Origin: a virus
Virus genome (UHGV): UHGV-0171044
Length of the DNA: 36,457 nucleotides
Strand: one strand, 5' to 3'
Both the position numbers and the translations under genes were made by a program. A model generated the notes under the pieces. That model ran no database searches. It was not told the DNA's origin and worked only from the letters and a program-made list of their open reading frames with translations. Shown here in pieces: positions 1,696 through 36,407 of the stretch. Positions within the stretch are counted from its first letter, which is position 1, and each line of letters starts with the position of its first letter.

Positions 1696-2319
1696 TCACT
1701 CTCCTTTGATGCGAATGCCAGCTGCGCTTGCTGATTCTTCATATGCGCGTTTAGCAGCGTTAAGGATTGCTGCCAGTGGCGTATAGCCGCCATCCATTCG
1801 GATTGTGTTGTGGATGCCAGCCATTGTGTCGCGCAATTTGCTGTGGCTAGCAGACAGTTCTGCTATGCACTTCTCTGCGGCATCGGCTCGATCTTTTTCA
1901 CGCTGGAACATTTTGTGAGTGCGGTCTATAGCTTCGATTCGTGCCGCTGATGTCTTCTGCACGGCTTCAAGCTCAACACGCAGCTTCCCAACCGTAAGAG
2001 CAATATCCTCGTTCTTCTGGTCGCGGCGTTTGATGTATTGCTGGTTTCTTTCCAGCTCATCCAGCAGCGCCAAGACGGTAGCCGGATTGGCTGCAGCGAT
2101 GAATTCAGCATTGGCCTGCTGTTCCATTTGGAAATCTTCATCGAAACCGCTTTCAGGATGCGCTCCTTCAATTCTGCAAATGGGAATATATCCAGCAACT
2201 TCACGATGAATTAGCGCATCATCACCATCAAATCGGCTCTCTCCATATTCGAGCGACCACTCGCCACACGTTGCTTTTTCTGCCTTAGCACGCAATGCCT
2301 GATAGTCAATCTCGCTCAT
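1696..2319 (-). CDS. Ea22-like early protein
   Basis: N-terminus [21 protein letters not shown] is typical of the lambdoid Ea22 family; AGGAGG before the ATG; coiled-coil middle. Confidence 0.6.
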   Translation of the reverse strand: MSEIDYQALRAKAEKATCGEWSLEYGESRFDGDDALIHREVAGYIPICRIEGAHPESGFDEDFQMEQQANAEFIAAANPATVLALLDELERNQQYIKRRDQKNEDIALTVGKLRVELEAVQKTSAARIEAIDRTHKMFQREKDRADAAEKCIAELSASHSKLRDTMAGIHNTIRMDGGYTPLAAILNAAKRAYEESASAAGIRIKGE

Positions 2320-2747
2320 TGGTTGCCTCCTTTGCGAAGCTGGGAAGCAAAGTCACGGATAGTGTCATCAAGGTCTGGGCACAACAGATGGTCAGCAAAC
2401 ATCTCTACCCCCTGCGCCCGTACTTCAGCCAGAAAAGCATCGGTGGCTGGGGTTTCAGTAACATCATCTTCCCATTCGCCAAACTCCTCACGACAAAAGT
2501 CATTAAATTCCTTCTCAGATTGCTTAAGCGAGGTATTTTCTGCAGCCATCTTCGCGCATTTAGCCTCAAGGTTATCAATCGTGATTCCAGCAGAACGACA
2601 CTCCCGCAACGCCGTTTCCAGTTTTGATTCAAGCTCACCGAACTTACGCACCAGATATTCAGCGTTTGTTTCGTTAACCCTTAAATCTCGTGGGATGCAT
2701 TTACCTTTCAGAAAACCATCCATCTCAATTAGTGACATTTGTTTCAT
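2316..2747 (-). CDS. hypothetical acidic protein
   Basis: ATG at 2747 overlaps the upstream stop as ATGA; the track start at 2765 is GTG. Confidence 0.5.
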
Positions 2748-16096: not shown

Positions 16097-16593
16097 TGCC
16101 TCCATCATTACGAAAAGCCGTTGCTGCTGCTATTGGTGGCGGGGCTATTGCCATAGCATCTGTGTTAATCACTGGCCCAAGTGGTAACGATGGTCTGGAA
16201 GGTGTTAGCTACATACCATACAAAGATATTGTTGGTGTATGGACTGTATGTCACGGACACACCGGAAAAGACATCATGCTCGGTAAAACGTATACCGAAG
16301 CAGAATGCAAAGCCCTCCTGAATAAAGACCTTGCCACGGTCGCCAGACAAATTAACCCGTACATCAAAGTCGATATACCGGAAACAACGCGCGGCGCTCT
16401 TTATTCGTTCGTCTATAACGTGGGCGCAGGCAATTTCAGAACATCGACGCTTCTTCGCAAAATCAACCAGGGCGATATCAAGGGCGCATGTGACCAGCTA
16501 CGTCGCTGGACATACGCTGGCGGTAAGCAATGGAAAGGGCTGATGACTCGCCGTGAGATTGAGCGTGAAGTCTGTTTGTGGGGGCAGCAATGA
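16096..16593 (+). CDS. R: SAR endolysin (lysozyme with N-terminal signal-anchor-release domain)
   Basis: Gly/Ala-rich N-terminal SAR helix ([20 protein letters not shown]) plus lysozyme domain; start overlaps the holin stop. Confidence 0.9.
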
Positions 16594-17027
16594 GCAGAGT
16601 AACCGCGATTATCTCCGCTCTGGTTATCTGCATCATCGTCTGCCTGTCATGGGCTGTTAATCATTACCGTGATAACGCCATCGCCTACAAAGAGCAGCGC
16701 GATAAGGCCGCATCCATCATTGCTGACATGCAGAAGCGTCAACGTGATGTAGCAGAACTCGACGCCAGATATACAAAGGAACTTGCTGATGCTAACGCGA
16801 CTATCGAAAGTCTCCGTGCTGATGTTTCTGCTGGTCGTAAGCGCCTGCAAGTCGCCGCCACCTGTGCAAAGTCAACGACCGGAGCCAGCAGCATGGGCGA
16901 TGGAGAAAGCCCAAGACTTACAGCAGATGCTGAACTCAATTATTACCGTCTCCGAAGTGGAATCGACAGGATAACCGCGCAGGTTAACTACTTGCAGGAG
17001 TACATCAGGACGCAATGCCTTCGATGA
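16590..17027 (+). CDS. Rz: Rz i-spanin
   Basis: N-terminal transmembrane helix then coiled coil; ATGA overlap with the endolysin stop. Confidence 0.85.
16789..16974 (+). CDS. Rz1: Rz1 o-spanin lipoprotein, embedded in Rz in the +1 frame
   Basis: lipobox LLVVSAC followed by a Pro-rich segment; nested entirely inside Rz. Confidence 0.7.
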
Positions 17028-29746: not shown

Positions 29747-31857
29747 TGGCCTATAGTCGTGAACAGTTGATGACGGCGTTAAGGAATGCTGATGCTGCCG
29801 GCGATACTGAGGGAGCACGTCGCATTGCTCAGATGCTGTCTTCTGATGATCAATCCACTCAAAACCAATCGCAGCCAGAAGAACAATCTCTGGTAGGAAA
29901 AGCTACTGACTGGCTCACTGGTGGTCAAAGTGCAGGGCAAATTGCAGAACAGGCTGGTCGTGGTCTGGTAAACATACCATTTGACGTATTGCAGGGTGGC
30001 GCAAGTCTGATTAATGCAATCAGCCAGGGGCTTGGTGGTCCAAAGGTTTTGGATGATGTTTATCGCCCTGTCGATCGACCTACAGACCCTTACGCGCAAG
30101 CCGGTGAAACAATTGGTGGGTATCTCCTGCCAATTGGCACAGCGGCAAAAGCTGTTGGAGCGACAGCAAAGCTCGCTGGAGATATCGGTTCCGCAGGAAA
30201 CATGATTGCAGGTTCTCTTGCTGATGCTGCAAATCAGGAGGGCGACTTTGCACAAAATGCTGCCATTAACGGTGGTATCAATATTGGTGCTCAAGGCGTT
30301 CTTTCAGGTGTCGGGCGCGTTATTGCGCCAAGAGTTTCACAGGCTCTTGGTGGTGCAGCACTGAATTCTGCTAATGATGTTTCCAGGATGGCAAAGTCAG
30401 GTGCTGGGCGTCAGTCAATTGCCAGTCAGGCCGCTAATGTGTCCGAAGATGTAGCAAAAGCGGCTGAGTCTGCTGGAATTGATATAAACGCATTAACACC
30501 AGGAATGCGATCTGGAAGTCGTGGAATTGCACAAGCCGAAGGCGCATTGGCATCAACACCAGGAATTGTTCAGGATGCCCATCAGGCAGCATTTAACGAA
30601 ATATCATCAAAGTTAAGTCGAAACCTTGATGAATTTGGGGCCGCATCTGGAACGGCATCAGAAAAAAGTGCGGCTATAAAACAAAGGATTCTTCAAAATC
30701 TTGATCAGATGAAGGATGCCGAGCGCGCGGCATGGGATGACGTGCGGTCAACAATGCCAAATCAAAAAGCAAGAATGCTAAATGGTAATGCCGTTATTCA
30801 GGCAGAGCGATCTGCTGGCATACCGCTTACTCCTGAAATGAAACAGTTTGTTCAGGCAAACAATCAAGGTGGAGTAACATTTGATGGCATGAAAGCATGG
30901 AGAGCGAAATTTGCTGATGCTGAGCAAAAATATAAGCGTAGCGGAGAGGCAAATGCGGCAAGGAGAGCAGGGGAAATACGCCGGGCAATTACTGATGATA
31001 TGCGCACAATGGCGGAAAACGGCGGATTTCTTGATGACTGGCAAAAAGCTAATGATCTGTCTAAAGCGAGGCTATCCGCACAAGAGAGTGCAGAGTCTGT
31101 TTTTGGGCGTGATTTGGCAACAGATGCACTGATTACGAATGGAGTAAAATCTCTTCAATCATCGTCAGCTAAAGGTCTTAATGGTCCTGCTGGATTCCAT
31201 TCTATGATCCGCGCGCTGCCAGAATCAGAGCGTGTTCCTGCTATATCATCAATGTTGCAGGATGCTATCTCGCATGGTGTACGTGGTGGCAAATCTGATG
31301 CAGCAGGAATTAACCATATCGCAGGGATACTTACCCCACAAAATGTAAAAGCCATTAGCAGATATTCCTCAGAACTTGGAAGAATTGCTGATGCATATGG
31401 CACTCTTGCAAGAGCGGCAGTGAAGCCTCAGCAGTATATTGAAAGAACAGGGAGAACAGCCAATGTTCTACGTGATCTTGACGCTGGTTTATCCAACGTT
31501 ACCTCAACAGTATTAAATGCAATTGCAAACTCAACGTCGGGTGCCATTGTTGGTGGAGCAGGTGGGGGCATTGCAGGCGCGGCCGCAGGTGCTTTAGTTG
31601 GCGCCGGGTTAAAAGGTGCTGTATCTAAAATTGCCACCACGCGTAGCGGTCGATATGCGATAGAGAAAGCAGTTCAGGAAGCCACGAAAGCAGTAAGAGC
31701 TGGCGGAAGTAAAGAAGCATTAGCGGCGGCGGAACGCAGATTTATGGCAAATAAAGCCGCCGTAAAAGCAATACGTGATGCAGTTGGAAACGAAGAGTTC
31801 AATCGCTTAGCGAGGGCTGGCATTGTAGCGTCGCTAAGCGGAATAGCACAGGAGTAA
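29746..31857 (+). CDS. ejection protein (P22 gp16-like)
   Basis: 703-aa Ala/Gly-rich protein, last gene of the late operon. Confidence 0.75.
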
Positions 31858-32181
31858 TTAATCATCCATGGATGGATTGAGCTTATCTCGTGTTGATGTG
31901 GCGATTTGTCCTACATTCCTAAGCCAAGATTTCAAATCCTTGATATTGTCATTGATTTCATGAATATCTTCTTTTTTTAGTCTGTTAATACTATTCTCAA
32001 TAATTTCAATGGATTGCTCAATATCAGATATAGTGAATGATAGTTTGTTCTTCTCATCTTTTATTGAGTTTTTAAGTGCTTCGTTCTCAGTCTTGAGGTC
32101 AGATATCTTTTGTTTTAAAGATGCCAGTTGGTACTGAACCACAATGAGTGCGATAGCTATCACGATAACTGTTGTATACAC
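31858..32181 (-). CDS. membrane-anchored coiled-coil protein of unknown function
   Basis: GTG start with GGAGG at 5 nt; N-terminal transmembrane helix then a Lys/Glu-rich coiled coil; AT-rich gene convergent with gp16, at the position of P22 sieA. Confidence 0.55.
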   Translation of the reverse strand: MYTTVIVIAIALIVVQYQLASLKQKISDLKTENEALKNSIKDEKNKLSFTISDIEQSIEIIENSINRLKKEDIHEINDNIKDLKSWLRNVGQIATSTRDKLNPSMDD

Positions 32182-32299
32182 ACCAACCTCCTTAGTTTTG
32201 AGCAGGATACCATGAAAAAAGTAAACATCTTTTGCCTACTTCACATTTGAATGGTTTGTCATTAGGATGTTTCCGGTTTTTTCAAATATGGAAATTGAT

Positions 32300-32719
32300 A
32301 TGAAGAGGATTATCGGCGTTGTTGCTGGCGCTATATTGTTATCTGGGTGCGCAACTATTGTTGGTGACGAAACACAGCTCGTGCAAGTGAACAGCAATCC
32401 TTCCGGTGCGAGCTTTAAAGTAAAAGACGAATCAGGCGTGATTGTTGCGCAAGGCAAGACCCCGCAAGGAGTAACTCTTGCCAAGTCAGATGGTAGTTAT
32501 TTTGGCAAAAAGAGCTACCAGATCACTATGGAAAAGGATGGGTACGAACCAGTTACCCTGCCAATCAAAGCCAATGCTAATGGTTGGTATATTGGTGGAA
32601 ACCTTGTGTTTGGTGGGTTAATTGGTTGGCTTGCTGTAGATCCTTTTAATGGTGGGATGTATACCTTGAAGCCAAAAGAGGCAAACGCATCTCTTATACC
32701 ATCAACAAAGCAAGACTAA
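32300..32719 (+). CDS. lipoprotein with PEGA-like beta domain and Gly-rich C-terminal motif
   Basis: signal peptide with lipobox LLSGC; VQVNSNPSGASFKV ... GKTPQGV ... KDGYEPV resembles a PEGA domain; own upstream AT-rich region and downstream terminator. Confidence 0.65.
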   Translation: MKRIIGVVAGAILLSGCATIVGDETQLVQVNSNPSGASFKVKDESGVIVAQGKTPQGVTLAKSDGSYFGKKSYQITMEKDGYEPVTLPIKANANGWYIGGNLVFGGLIGWLAVDPFNGGMYTLKPKEANASLIPSTKQD

Positions 32720-32727
32720 TAAATAGG

Positions 32728-32750
32728 ACCCACCTTCAGGTGGGTTTTTT
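32728..32750 (+). terminator. rho-independent terminator after the lipoprotein gene
   Basis: ACCCACC-TTCA-GGTGGGT followed by TTTTTT; the mnt stop codon lies in the loop region. Confidence 0.7.
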
Positions 32751-32987
32751 GTACAAATACTTCAGCGTATCAAACACCATCTTCTTAACAAGCTCTGACT
32801 GCTCATCAGCGAGTCGTTCTGCATCGTCGCGATATCCAGTCACAGGCGATGGTTTTGATAGAGCATCTTGGACGATTTGTAACAACTCGGAGTTCATTGA
32901 TCTCCCATTCGCCTCCGCCCTGAATTTTAATTTCTCCCTTACTTCCATAGGCATACGGAAGTTAAAGTGCGGATCATCTCTAGCCAT
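32736..32987 (-). CDS. mnt: Mnt repressor (ribbon-helix-helix, immI)
   Basis: MARDDPHFNFRMPMEVREKLKFRAEANGRSMNSELLQIV is an RHH fold as in P22 Mnt; divergent from arc. Confidence 0.85.
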   Translation of the reverse strand: MARDDPHFNFRMPMEVREKLKFRAEANGRSMNSELLQIVQDALSKPSPVTGYRDDAERLADEQSELVKKMVFDTLKYLYKKPT

Positions 32988-34280: not shown

Positions 34281-36407
34281 ATGACAGATTCAATAAATGC
34301 CAATGTTGTAGTGAGTATGCCTTCGCAACTCTTCACTATGGCTCGTTCTTTTAAAGCCGTAGCTAATGGAAAGATTTATATCGGTAAAATTGACACTGAC
34401 CCGGTAAACCCTGAAAACCAGATTCAGGTTTATGTGGAGAACGAAGATGGCTCTCACGTTCCTGTTTCACAACCAATCATCATTAACGCTGCTGGTTATC
34501 CGGTATATAACGGACAGATTGCCAAATTCGTTACCGTGCAAGGCCATTCTATGGCTGTTTATGATGCATATGGGGCGCAGCAGTTCTATTTTCCTAATGT
34601 GTTGAAGTACGACCCTGATCAACTACGGCAGCAATTAGAAGACCCGGATGGAGCTAAAAAATATCCTGAATTGCAGATATCTCGGTGGAGGGACGATTGT
34701 GATGTAAGAGGGTGGGGGGCAAAAGGCGATGGTATAACAGATGATACATCTGCATTGATCCTGGCTGCAGAATATGCACGAGAATCATCCAGAACATTAC
34801 GAGCGGAAGGTGATTTTATTATTACGGAGACATTAAATCTTCGTAATGTCAGCCTAGAAATGACCAATGCTGTTTTTACCATATCCCACTCAGGGATAGG
34901 GGTATTGCTTGGCGGGAATGCATCAAACCCTAACAACCCAAGACAAAACTTCGGAACGATTATCAGAAATTCTGGTATTTCATCTGAAACGACACCGGAT
35001 ATTCGTATTATCGGGGCAAAAGGGCAGCATATTAACATTGAGCGTTGCGACTACTTACAGTTATATGCAAACTCTGATGATTCAGTATATGAAACAGATT
35101 ATTCTATAGCCTACTCAACCTTTAACCTGAAAAAGGTCGATACAATTCATTTTCTTGGTGTAGTTAGAGGTTGGATAAACGAAAACAAGTTTTACCTAAA
35201 CAGGACAAATAATGTGATTATTGCTGATAATCCGTATTCACATAATCACAACAAGTTTTTTGGTGGAACGATGGAGAATACTGGGGTTATTGATATTCAG
35301 CGTGGTAATAATAATCATTTTTACGGACTCCGTTTTGAGCGCAGACCAGACAACCCAGATGACACACAAAGAATTAATTTTGGTAGTTATACGTGGAATA
35401 ATTCTGTTCAGGCATCATGGCTTAGCTTTTCTGCATATACCAATGAACCATATAACCCAAACAATCTTGTAACTGTCACTGATAATGGTAATGGAAATGC
35501 TGTATATCATATTCAGGAAGAACTAACTAATGAAGTGTCGCTTTTTTCAGTGAGTGAGAAAACGCCATTTTTATCAAGCGTTAATATGGGAAGTTCAGAT
35601 ACACCTGATTATGTTACAGATGTAAAAAATGTGCGAAATTTAATTCATCTTGTTAATGGTAGTTTTGCTATTGGACGTAACTTCAGGACAATTTGGGAAT
35701 CAGGTGATATAAGCGTCAGGAATGGCGATGTGTTTGCATTTACTTCTGATGTCAGCGCATTCCGCATAAGGGTTTATGGAATTGACGAGAATGGCAGTGT
35801 TATTACAAATGAGCCTGAAGGGATTGGTTTTCCAGGGGCTTCATGGGATGATGAAAACAGTCGTTTTACTACCCAGTCTAACATCGGTAATGCAAAGTTT
35901 AGGATAACCGACAAAGGAGGAGTAAAATCAATAAGGGTTGTCATTCTGTCGGGTGGTAATACATCTGGAATTACCTTCAAATATATCAGATTTACCGGAA
36001 GATATTATAAGGATAGTTCTGCGTATCCTCGAAGAAATATGGATGATCATAATATCCACAGGTCTGGTGCTGTGATGTTTAATTCATCACTTGATGTCAA
36101 AATGGAAAATATAGCATCAGGTGTTACCTGTTATGTAAAAGATGCATCTGATGTTAAGGTTAATATATTCAGAAATAGATACGTTGTTAAATCGGTGTCC
36201 GGAAATACTATATATGTGCGTAACCAGGATGAAATTTCATATTCTGGTCCTTATGATGACTTTAAAGTTGCATATACTAGCGGGGCAAAAAATATGATTT
36301 CTGATGTTTCAGGAATTTCATCTAATGCAATAACGTTATCAGGTAGTGTTCCTTCTGAAATATCAGAAGGAAGCAATATTGATTTGATTAAAATATTAAC
36401 GAAGTAG
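34281..36407 (+). CDS. tailspike: P22-type head-binding N-domain plus divergent beta-helix receptor-binding domain
   Basis: first ~115 aa ([38 protein letters not shown] ... NVLKYDPDQ) match the P22 gp9 head-binding domain; the remainder carries a [11 protein letters not shown] motif typical of pectate-lyase-like beta-helix enzymes and does not match P22 endorhamnosidase. Confidence 0.9.

Follow-up and report, generated by a model that had tools for sequence, protein, structure and literature searches.

Between gene 16 and the immI region of UHGV-0171044, a P22-like (Lederbergvirus) prophage or phage genome of 36,457 nucleotides (nt), lie two small genes, hkcB and a gene for a lipoprotein, which are unrelated, independently exchanged cassettes and constitute neither a two-gene system nor a functional pair. 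The whole 36,457-nt stretch is called the window below. We regard this interval as probably representing the 'ant moron' at its left end, in a P22-type prophage that resembles epsilon34 and HK620, with each of the two cassettes expressed separately from the prophage. The new elements of this work are a sieA leader common to unrelated cassettes, a strict linkage of hkcB to long-type gp16, the finding that unrelated prophages have captured the lipoprotein family repeatedly, and the link to published RNA sequencing (RNA-seq) of prophage expression.

The genes themselves had been catalogued before. Between positions 31700 and 32800 the window is 97.1% identical to Salmonella phage epsilon34 (genes 13-16) and 99.7% identical to a prophage of E. 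coli strain 162.2. At the protein level hkcB is 98% identical to epsilon34 gp14 and the lipoprotein 97.8% identical to gp15, while the CUS-3 hkcB is 96% identical. In epsilon34 both genes are annotated as 'conserved hypothetical', gene 14 being a homologue of HK620/CUS-3 hkcB. These are the same genes, with no substantive difference, and their database entries (PHROG 5962 and PHROG 6823) give no function. Villafane et al. 2008 named the interval from gene 16 to gene 9 the 'ant moron', described ten versions of it across sixteen genomes and listed genes 14 and 15 among its function-less members (PMC2629481). The region has thus been described as a moron since 2008, and the finding itself is not new; a literature search on hkcB, 'ant moron' and the accessions returned nothing besides that epsilon34 paper.

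Layout of the locus

The features of the region, with the evidence for each, are the following.

29746..31857, plus strand: gene 16 homologue of the 'long' type (DNA ejection protein, 703 amino acids (aa)); open reading frame (ORF), Pfam Phage_P22_gp16 on homologues
31723..31854, plus strand: C-terminal extension of gp16, 44 codons; comparison of gp16 proteins
31858..32181, minus strand: hkcB (epsilon34 gene 14 homologue), 107 aa, GTG start; ORF, PHROG 5962 with E 4e-58
32182..32228, minus strand: hkcB leader, 47 nt, with AAGGAGG and the TGGTATCCT extended -10-like element; alignment with the sequence upstream of P22 sieA
32212..32250, plus strand: remnant of the hkcC start (MKKVNI...); ORF tail, HK620 hkcC translation beginning MKKVNIGNV, alignment
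32240..32268, plus strand: candidate sigma-70 promoter of the lipoprotein gene, TTCACA-17-TAGGAT; scan, 9/12, consensus match only
32300..32719, plus strand: lipoprotein gene (epsilon34 gene 15 homologue), 139 aa, ATG start; ORF, PHROG 6823 with E 6e-86
32728..32745, both strands: bidirectional intrinsic terminator between the lipoprotein gene and the mnt 3' end; scan, rho-independent terminator annotated in epsilon34
32736..32987, minus strand: mnt (Arc-family maintenance repressor), start of immI; context

Beyond mnt follow arc, ant and the tailspike gene. The original prediction, made from the sequence alone, had described a 107-aa AT-rich ORF on the minus strand with a GTG start and a strong ribosome-binding site, and all these features were recovered at 31858-32181, the Shine-Dalgarno sequence AAGGAGG lying 5 nt upstream of the GTG. 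It had also described a divergent 139-aa lipoprotein gene with a lipobox and a terminator, which we likewise found, at 32300-32719 and 32728-32745; the terminator is a strong hairpin with a T-run that overlaps the mnt 3' end. An alternative lipoprotein ORF of 150 aa starting at 32267 is unsupported, every homologue starting with MKK or MKR. The stop codons of hkcB and gene 16 had been said to share the hexanucleotide TAATTA. This hexanucleotide is present, but it arises because the hkcB stop TTA (31858-31860) lies directly against the gene-16 stop TAA (31855-31857), so that the two stops abut with no base in common.

Two further claims had to be narrowed. A foreign composition had been proposed for both genes; it holds for hkcB, whose GC content, 33.6%, is matched or undercut by only 0.8% of the 324-nt windows here, but not for the lipoprotein gene (44.8% against 46.5% for the whole window). 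Both genes had also been thought to interrupt the late-gene strand, whereas only hkcB does so, the lipoprotein gene being on the late strand itself.

Two smaller observations concern the ends of the cassettes. A perfect 10-bp palindrome, ATCCATGGAT, lies at 31864-31873 inside the hkcB 3' end, 7 nt from the gene-16 stop; it is followed by a T-run on neither strand and hence is no obvious terminator. On the other side of hkcB, the stretch 32212-32250 reads MKKVNI and then runs out of register until a stop; an intact hkcC is divergent from sieA or hkcB in P22 and HK620. This hkcC remnant marks a recombination scar, the lipoprotein module having taken the place of hkcC.

The two genes travel separately

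The locus had been taken for a single two-gene insertion, and the distribution of the genes contradicts this. hkcB is found without the lipoprotein gene in CUS-3, SEN22, HK620 and vB_EcoP-611R6, and the lipoprotein gene without hkcB in Gally, vB_EcoP-720R6 and the MB15 prophage. In a set of 5,426 complete E. coli genomes, hkcB-like DNA was present in 155 and the lipoprotein gene in 126, the joint arrangement occurring in 10. Where the two do occur together their histories can differ, as in the Salmonella prophage L020, which has an hkcB of 60% identity beside a lipoprotein gene of 99% identity; this pairing indicates recombination between the two genes.

Other genes occupy the same places: the gene 13 lipoprotein in Gally, a 134-aa lipoprotein in Leclercia, a YafO-like toxin in CUS-3, and in SEN22 a DUF1902 protein beside an annotated YcfA-like gene. 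A scan of the neighbours of hkcB for defence functions returned the YafO-like toxin (CUS-3) and DUF1902 (SEN22), and nothing explaining hkcB emerged. Related phages carry one gene, the other or neither, in agreement with the earlier view of both as accessory genes of a variable region. As expected of morons, both are absent from close relatives whose operons are otherwise syntenic. Of the signals associated with morons, the lipoprotein gene has a clear terminator and a promoter candidate conserved in Gally; hkcB has a sieA-like leader, and neither a promoter nor a terminator that passed the scans.

The juxtaposition of a membrane-anchored coiled-coil protein and a lipoprotein superficially resembles the architecture of a spanin pair, and hkcB gives weak PHROG matches to Rz-like spanins (E 0.002-0.03). 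That the two proteins form such a pair, or another envelope-spanning complex, is nevertheless hardly credible. The genes are divergent and independently distributed, and the window has its own holin, endolysin and canonical Rz (16578-17027, E 1.8e-72) with an embedded Rz1 (16783-16974). Moreover, the helical domain of hkcB is predicted to be cytoplasmic, and weak Rz-like matches of this kind are typical of coiled-coil noise. The spanin pair was therefore rejected on the grounds of divergence, separate distribution and the presence of Rz/Rz1 elsewhere.

hkcB occupies the sieA slot

In P22, sieA lies directly after gene 16, on the same strand as hkcB. The original placement of the locus at the sieA position proved accurate, hkcB being in the exact P22 sieA slot and orientation and sharing a common leader. 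This 47-nt leader, ATGTTTACTTTTTTCATGGTATCCTGCTCAAAACTAAGGAGGTTGGT, followed by the GTG, shows two mismatches relative to the sequence upstream of P22 sieA. In the P22 reference record the promoter PsieA is annotated across its upstream half, and a single copy of sieA in the chromosome, together with 85 bp of upstream DNA, was reported to exclude fully (Leavitt et al. 2024, PMC10883804). Of the results on hkcB, this common leader tells us most.

The same leader heads other genes. In the MB15 prophage it precedes a different ORF, coding for a 109-aa protein with a transmembrane (TM) helix and a coiled coil (L023:2675-3004, minus strand). This family is also present at L022:4645-4977 (plus strand), in tandem upstream of hkcB, and its likeness to hkcB is limited to the TM helix and the first heptads (hhalign probability 66%). 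In E. coli AR_0118 the leader precedes an unannotated hydrophobic ORF of ~62 aa directly after gene 16. This ORF (L024, NZ_CP020048.1, about 2315-2503, minus strand; hand translation VKKKFVNVAKCAIFIFFMTFYGF...) is a further candidate cassette, and 34-nt matches to the leader were seen in several other E. coli genomes.

Elsewhere hkcB is found in a different arrangement. In prophages of Klebsiella aerogenes and Citrobacter freundii it is the last gene of a same-strand string consisting of mnt, a 90-aa gene, a 138/148-aa gene and hkcB (L117:2982-4324 and L120:3047-4324), and in CUS-3 it follows two same-strand genes; in these three loci only the Shine-Dalgarno part of the leader is kept. The 138/148-aa protein is a coiled coil with a C-terminal TM segment, and L020 carries the same string in the form mnt-89aa-148aa. 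Judged by its surroundings, hkcB thus has the setting for expression that sieA and mnt have, two genes known to be expressed from prophages.

Several points weigh against expression of hkcB from the prophage. The window keeps the -10 half of PsieA and the leader, including the TGGTATCCT element, without the annotated -35 hexamer. A consensus scan of the hkcB strand passed no promoter, and a search for published transcript or phenotype data on hkcB found none.

hkcB codes for a small membrane protein

The ratio of nonsynonymous to synonymous substitutions (dN/dS) in diverged hkcB pairs was 0.12-0.31, with synonymous sites near saturation, and the length of exactly 107 codons is kept in most relatives, down to ~50% identity. 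These figures point to a real gene under purifying selection as a protein. The family is small, comprising 48 clusters even by profile search, and confined to Enterobacteriaceae, and all hkcB loci with genomic context are in P22-like prophages.

Residues 1-22 form the sole hydrophobic stretch (Kyte-Doolittle score over 19 residues, KD19, up to 2.2). The AlphaFold2 (AF2) model consists of one helix from residue 2 to 101, with a predicted local distance difference test score (pLDDT) of 80, so that a coiled-coil-like domain would follow the TM helix. Conservation is highest in the C-terminal ~25 residues, which contain the motif W-L/V-K/R-N-V-G-x-I/T-A-x-S-T-R-D-K-L/I-N-P-S. Since a K-rich flank (K23/K25) follows the helix and the N-terminal tip is uncharged or acidic, without positive charge (HK620 and the MB15 family have Glu3), the helical domain of ~80 residues is most likely cytoplasmic by the positive-inside rule. 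Scans of hkcB against Pfam, NCBIfam and PADLOC returned coiled-coil noise only, and sequence searches of the PDB with profiles of both hkcB and the lipoprotein gave nothing informative.

As no terminator separates hkcB from gene 16, its transcript must enter gene 16 in antisense. The unit might then act mainly as a prophage antisense RNA against the gene-16 3' end of superinfecting relatives, the ORF being secondary. The two stops abut with 0 nt between them at every locus examined, and only a weak terminator-like site is present, 210 nt inside gene 16. DNA conservation with HK620 peaks over the gene-16 end and the hkcB 3' end. A precedent exists in BTP1 lysogens, in which the antisense RNA STnc6030 covers the gene-16 homologue at its 3' end and the tailspike gene at its 5' end and gives immunity against BTP1, though not against P22 (Owen et al. 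2020, PMC7067206). STnc6030 and any hkcB transcript would have in common that they run antisense over the same gene end. They differ in that STnc6030 is non-coding, starts from a different promoter inside the tailspike gene and belongs to a phage without a moron, whereas hkcB is coding and under purifying selection. Given the dN/dS values, the constancy of the 107 codons, the strong Shine-Dalgarno sequence and the conserved C-terminal peptide motif, all of which indicate selection on the protein, we consider an RNA as the main agent unlikely. RNA and protein mechanisms are compatible with each other, and an hkcB transcript running into the gene-16 3' end may add an effect at the RNA level to that of the protein.

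Small membrane proteins can also be envisaged as toxins, and we considered hkcB as a membrane toxin, an abortive-infection effector or a modulator of cell division, such as a mimic of FtsB/DivIC, rather than a blocker of DNA entry. In CUS-3, a same-strand gene for a YafO-family toxin precedes hkcB; a sub-threshold Pfam match to DivIC was obtained (21.8 against 28.9 bits), and a QY motif is present in the TM helix. This explanation is quite improbable. The charge distribution of hkcB predicts a topology opposite to that of FtsB, PADLOC gave only coiled-coil noise, and the ORF is intact in 155 complete E. coli genomes, so that constitutive toxicity is unlikely. FtsB/DivIC mimicry in particular was rejected: hhalign to E. 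coli FtsB gave a probability of 1.2%, in addition to the sub-threshold DivIC match and the opposite charge distribution.

hkcB is linked to one type of gp16

In the window and in 11 other loci there are 0 nt between the stops of hkcB and gene 16. These loci are epsilon34, E. coli 162.2, HK620, CUS-3, SEN22, two Salmonella contigs, Leclercia, a metagenome contig, Klebsiella aerogenes and Citrobacter freundii. The gp16 beside hkcB is always of the 'long' type (684-722 aa, 63-95% identical to the window protein). It matches P22 gp16 over only ~155 N-terminal residues (68% identity, residues 48-202), the rest being unrelated. The 44-residue extension is present in all gp16 proteins encoded next to hkcB and absent from those of P22, MB15, AR_0118 and Gally.

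So strict an adjacency to one gp16 type would be expected if hkcB, the lipoprotein or both were conserved virion or assembly parts needed together with the long gp16, an outcome that would have spoken against the original reading. The data came out against it, and we judge it very improbable. Dewey and Bas106, both isolated phages, share this gp16 end, extension included, and go on directly to the tailspike gene with no moron, and P22 hybrids that received no more than genes 7, 20 and 16 from CUS-3 or HK620 are viable (PMC10883804). From these two observations hkcB is dispensable for the long gp16 type. In addition, hkcB is opposite in strand to the late operon, and Dec was the sole extra band in epsilon34 virion gels (PMC2629481). 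The virion-component reading is thus contradicted, chiefly by the viable hybrids and the moron-less phages.

Mutations that escape SieA map to the C-terminal regions of gp16 and gp20 (PMC10883804). A specificity link between hkcB and the C-terminal type of gp16 is therefore conceivable, although plain physical linkage explains the association equally well.

One discrepancy with the literature was noted here. By BLASTP the gp16 proteins of CUS-3 (L004:999-3158) and HK620 (L002:972-3140) are 77% identical; the text of Leavitt et al. 2024 gives 26% and uses this value to explain their differing sensitivity to SieA (PMC10883804). The difference in sensitivity may instead sit in the ~23% of divergent gp16 positions, many of which are near the C-terminus.

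Proposed function of hkcB

On this evidence, hkcB would be a small bitopic inner-membrane protein with one N-terminal TM helix and a helical domain of ~80 residues. Its most likely function, we infer, would be prophage-expressed superinfection exclusion at the inner membrane. It may act by disturbing the gp16/gp20 DNA-delivery conduit of incoming P22-like phages, in a SieA-like manner but as an unrelated protein.

The comparison with SieA is instructive in both directions. The two genes share the slot (minus strand, after gene 16), a near-identical leader, AAGGAGG and GTG, and each codes for a small membrane protein in P22-like prophages. The targets of SieA are the C-terminal parts of gp16 and gp20; hkcB, for its part, is tied to one C-terminal type of gp16. 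Other features weigh against exclusion. There is no sequence similarity between the two proteins, SieA having 162-164 aa and three predicted TM segments, hkcB 107 aa, one TM segment and a long helix. The SieA family consists of polytopic inner-membrane proteins with three or four TM segments; hkcB has a single hydrophobic segment, lacks the motif FxRYPxEAxxFNK of SieA types A-C and belongs to a PHROG of its own (5962). No SieA-like families were among its PHROG or NCBIfam matches, and no homology to known exclusion or defence proteins was found in PHROG, NCBIfam or PADLOC. P22 SieA itself has no match in Pfam or PADLOC. The predicted topology is deduced from the distribution of charges, and the equally adequate explanation of the gp16 association by physical linkage belongs on the same side. 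Taken with the slot, the leader and the gp16 association, superinfection exclusion by hkcB appears plausible.

A more far-reaching version treats the slot after gene 16 as a site of cassette exchange, at which one leader drives SieA, hkcB, the second TM/coiled-coil family and the ~62-aa TM peptide, hkcB being a new type of exclusion protein matched to the long gp16 through the 44-residue extension. We hold this version to be doubtful.

The lipoprotein belongs to a very large bacterial family

The lipoprotein starts with the signal peptide MKRIIGVVAGAILLSGC17, whose lipobox LSGC17 fits the pattern [LVI][ASTVI][GAS]C, and C17 is invariant in 40 homologues. The residue at +2 directs membrane sorting by the Lol system. 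The mature protein is predicted to start at Cys17, and the Ala at +2 would imply sorting to the outer membrane.

In the AF2 model the mature part contains a beta-sandwich at residues 25-93 (pLDDT ~95) and a beta-hairpin at 121-131. Between them lies a conserved Gly-rich hydrophobic stretch, NGWYIGGNLVFGGLIGWLAVDPFNGGMY (residues 94-121), which is modelled with low confidence. It includes the motif GGLIGWLAVDPFNGG (residues 105-119), of which G109, D114, P115 and G118 are invariant in the 40 homologues. The beta-sandwich matches PEGA/transthyretin-like domains, and a PEGA-like domain had been proposed for this protein. At the level of the modelled fold the proposal stands; at the level of the sequence it falls short, the Pfam PEGA (PF08308) score being 17.6 bits against a cutoff of 20.8 (E 0.0037). 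The likeness to the PEGA/CarboxypepD_reg transthyretin-like fold is also reflected in NCBI PGAP annotations, where some copies bear the name 'peptidase associated/transthyretin-like domain-containing protein'. In contrast, the C-terminal motif that defines the family, NGWYIGGN..FGGLIGW..VDPFNGGMY, lies outside PEGA. Scans against Pfam, NCBIfam and PADLOC gave only this sub-threshold PEGA score and a weak match to LEPBI_I2678.

A profile search of 1.84 billion representatives returned 5,671 clusters at E <= 1e-3 and 2,107 at E <= 1e-10; with homologues in the thousands, this ORF too is a real gene. Members are present in Gamma-, Beta-, Zeta- and Deltaproteobacteria, and the gene is chromosomal in Enterobacter, Photorhabdus, Halomonas and others. 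One member of 365 aa, P0163, is fused C-terminally to an OmpA-like eight-stranded beta-barrel (Pfam OmpA_membrane, E 2e-15), a fusion that fits an outer-membrane location. Other long members have Pro/Ala-rich tails.

Homologues that are 68-78% identical occur in unrelated siphovirus prophages, between the tail chaperone gene gpT and the tape-measure gene (E. coli, Proteus) or between gpI and gpJ (Pseudescherichia). The Proteus and Pseudescherichia copies have flanking terminators, and the Proteus copy also has a promoter candidate. The lipoprotein is thus a member of a very large bacterial family that has been captured repeatedly by temperate phages.

Lambda Bor, Cor of phi80 and N15, and Llp of T5 are likewise phage-encoded lipoproteins with their own expression signals, in or beside tail genes. 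Bor and Cor resemble it in the signal peptide only, the mature part here being a PEGA/transthyretin-like sandwich with a Gly-rich motif, and unlike Cor and Llp the lipoprotein belongs to a huge chromosomal family. Homology to either protein was rejected: the Cor models match residues 1-20/30 only, and hhalign to Bor aligns only the signal peptide region.

An identical lipoprotein gene is expressed in a lysogen

Gally, a P22-like prophage of the adherent-invasive E. coli strain LF82, carries a gene, GALLYPH_14 (LF82_139), whose product is 100% identical to the lipoprotein. Expression values for it are given in Table S1 of Misson et al. 2023 (PMC9928086) as log2(fpkm+5), fpkm standing for fragments per kilobase per million, in duplicates; B1, B6 and MB1 are cited here by their sample labels. 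For GALLYPH_14 the table lists the following values.

Stationary phase in LB (lysogeny broth): 6.22, 4.79
B1: 9.82, 10.19
B6: 10.49, 10.24
MB1: 11.03, 11.00
MB6 (macrophages, 6 h): 9.39, 9.50

On the same scale the table gives 2.3-4.1 for three adjacent injection genes and 8.9-12.0 for the C2 repressor. The log2 fold change of GALLYPH_14 between MB6 and LB is 3.84 (q 1.4e-31). By these values it is the second most transcribed gene of the prophage in macrophages, behind the repressor, and its transcript is ~100-fold above those of the neighbouring late genes in the lysogen. Lysogen expression had been predicted for both envelope genes and is borne out, by the RNA-seq of this identical Gally gene, for the lipoprotein. 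The lipoprotein gene is a lysogen-expressed, condition-responsive envelope gene.

At the promoter position Gally has TTCACG-17-TAAGAT and the window TTCACA-17-TAGGAT. The assignment of the promoter is supported by Gally keeping the hexamers while the spacer has diverged. Lying on the late strand, the gene would, by analogy with P22, also be expected to be crossed by antiterminated late transcripts in lytic growth.

Two points weigh on the other side. Only about 45 nt are common to Gally and the window upstream of the lipoprotein ATG. Furthermore, Misson et al. 2023 described Gally as 'devoid of morons', the gene being 3.3-fold over background in LB against a cutoff of 5-fold (PMC9928086).

The sieA slot of Gally is occupied by a different lipoprotein of 171 aa, the product of gene 13 (L003:2425-2940, minus strand). 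According to the same table gene 13 is transcribed in the LF82 lysogen, with log2(fpkm+5) values of 6.0-10.3, just below the authors' LB cutoff for morons.

Proposed function of the lipoprotein

The product would be an outer-membrane lipoprotein expressed from its own promoter and terminator unit. It would most likely serve as an envelope protein of lysogenic conversion, conferring a host benefit in host-associated conditions, a block to phages at the outer membrane, or both. Against a phage-related role speaks the huge chromosomal family, which points to a general cellular rather than an anti-phage role. Nor did the neighbourhood of the chromosomal homologues offer help: a search of 80 genomes for a conserved neighbour yielded generic families only (GGDEF/EAL, ABC-F, and murJ in Photorhabdus). 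No characterised relative was found in the profile and database searches.

The lipoprotein could accordingly be a host-fitness or virulence-type conversion factor, Bor-like in role and with no anti-phage function, altering outer-membrane properties in host-associated settings. The strong induction in macrophages and the high values in B1 and B6, together with the low values in stationary LB, agree with this, and the data set also shows this pattern for the Bor lipoprotein encoded by prophage Perceval (PMC9928086). The breadth of the chromosomal family across Proteobacteria suggests a cellular envelope role, and the relative fused to the OmpA-like barrel is also in keeping with such a factor. 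On the other side, temperate phages repeatedly carry the gene within their tail and ejection clusters, where lipoproteins that block receptors, such as Cor, are also located, and the homology to Bor is limited to the signal peptide. An exclusive host-fitness role is thus possible, though on balance we do not favour it, and we retain the broader assignment to lysogenic conversion.

Other features of the window

Besides hkcB, two parts of the window stand out by their base composition. The distal part of the tailspike gene (35000-36400) is AT-rich (GC 31-38% against 46.5% overall), which fits an exchanged receptor-binding domain. The stretch ~521-885 is the sole further one with a GC content <= 34.5% in 324-nt windows.

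Significance of the two cassettes

If hkcB excludes phages, it would represent a second, structurally unrelated way to block the DNA-ejection conduit of P22-type phages, tied to one ejection-protein type. It would then open a direct way to study the passage of gp16 across the inner membrane and the co-evolution of exclusion and ejection modules. Should the slot after gene 16 be a site of cassette exchange as outlined above, the exclusion cassettes would evolve jointly with the ejection-protein types, the two being linked modules. The common leader suggests a simple rule for finding more exclusion candidates in P22-like prophages.

The lipoprotein is of interest as one of thousands of uncharacterised family members that temperate phages, unrelated to one another, have captured recurrently. 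In the published table its gene ranks among the prophage genes most strongly expressed when an adherent-invasive E. coli strain is inside macrophages, and it is a cheap and well-motivated target for functional work.

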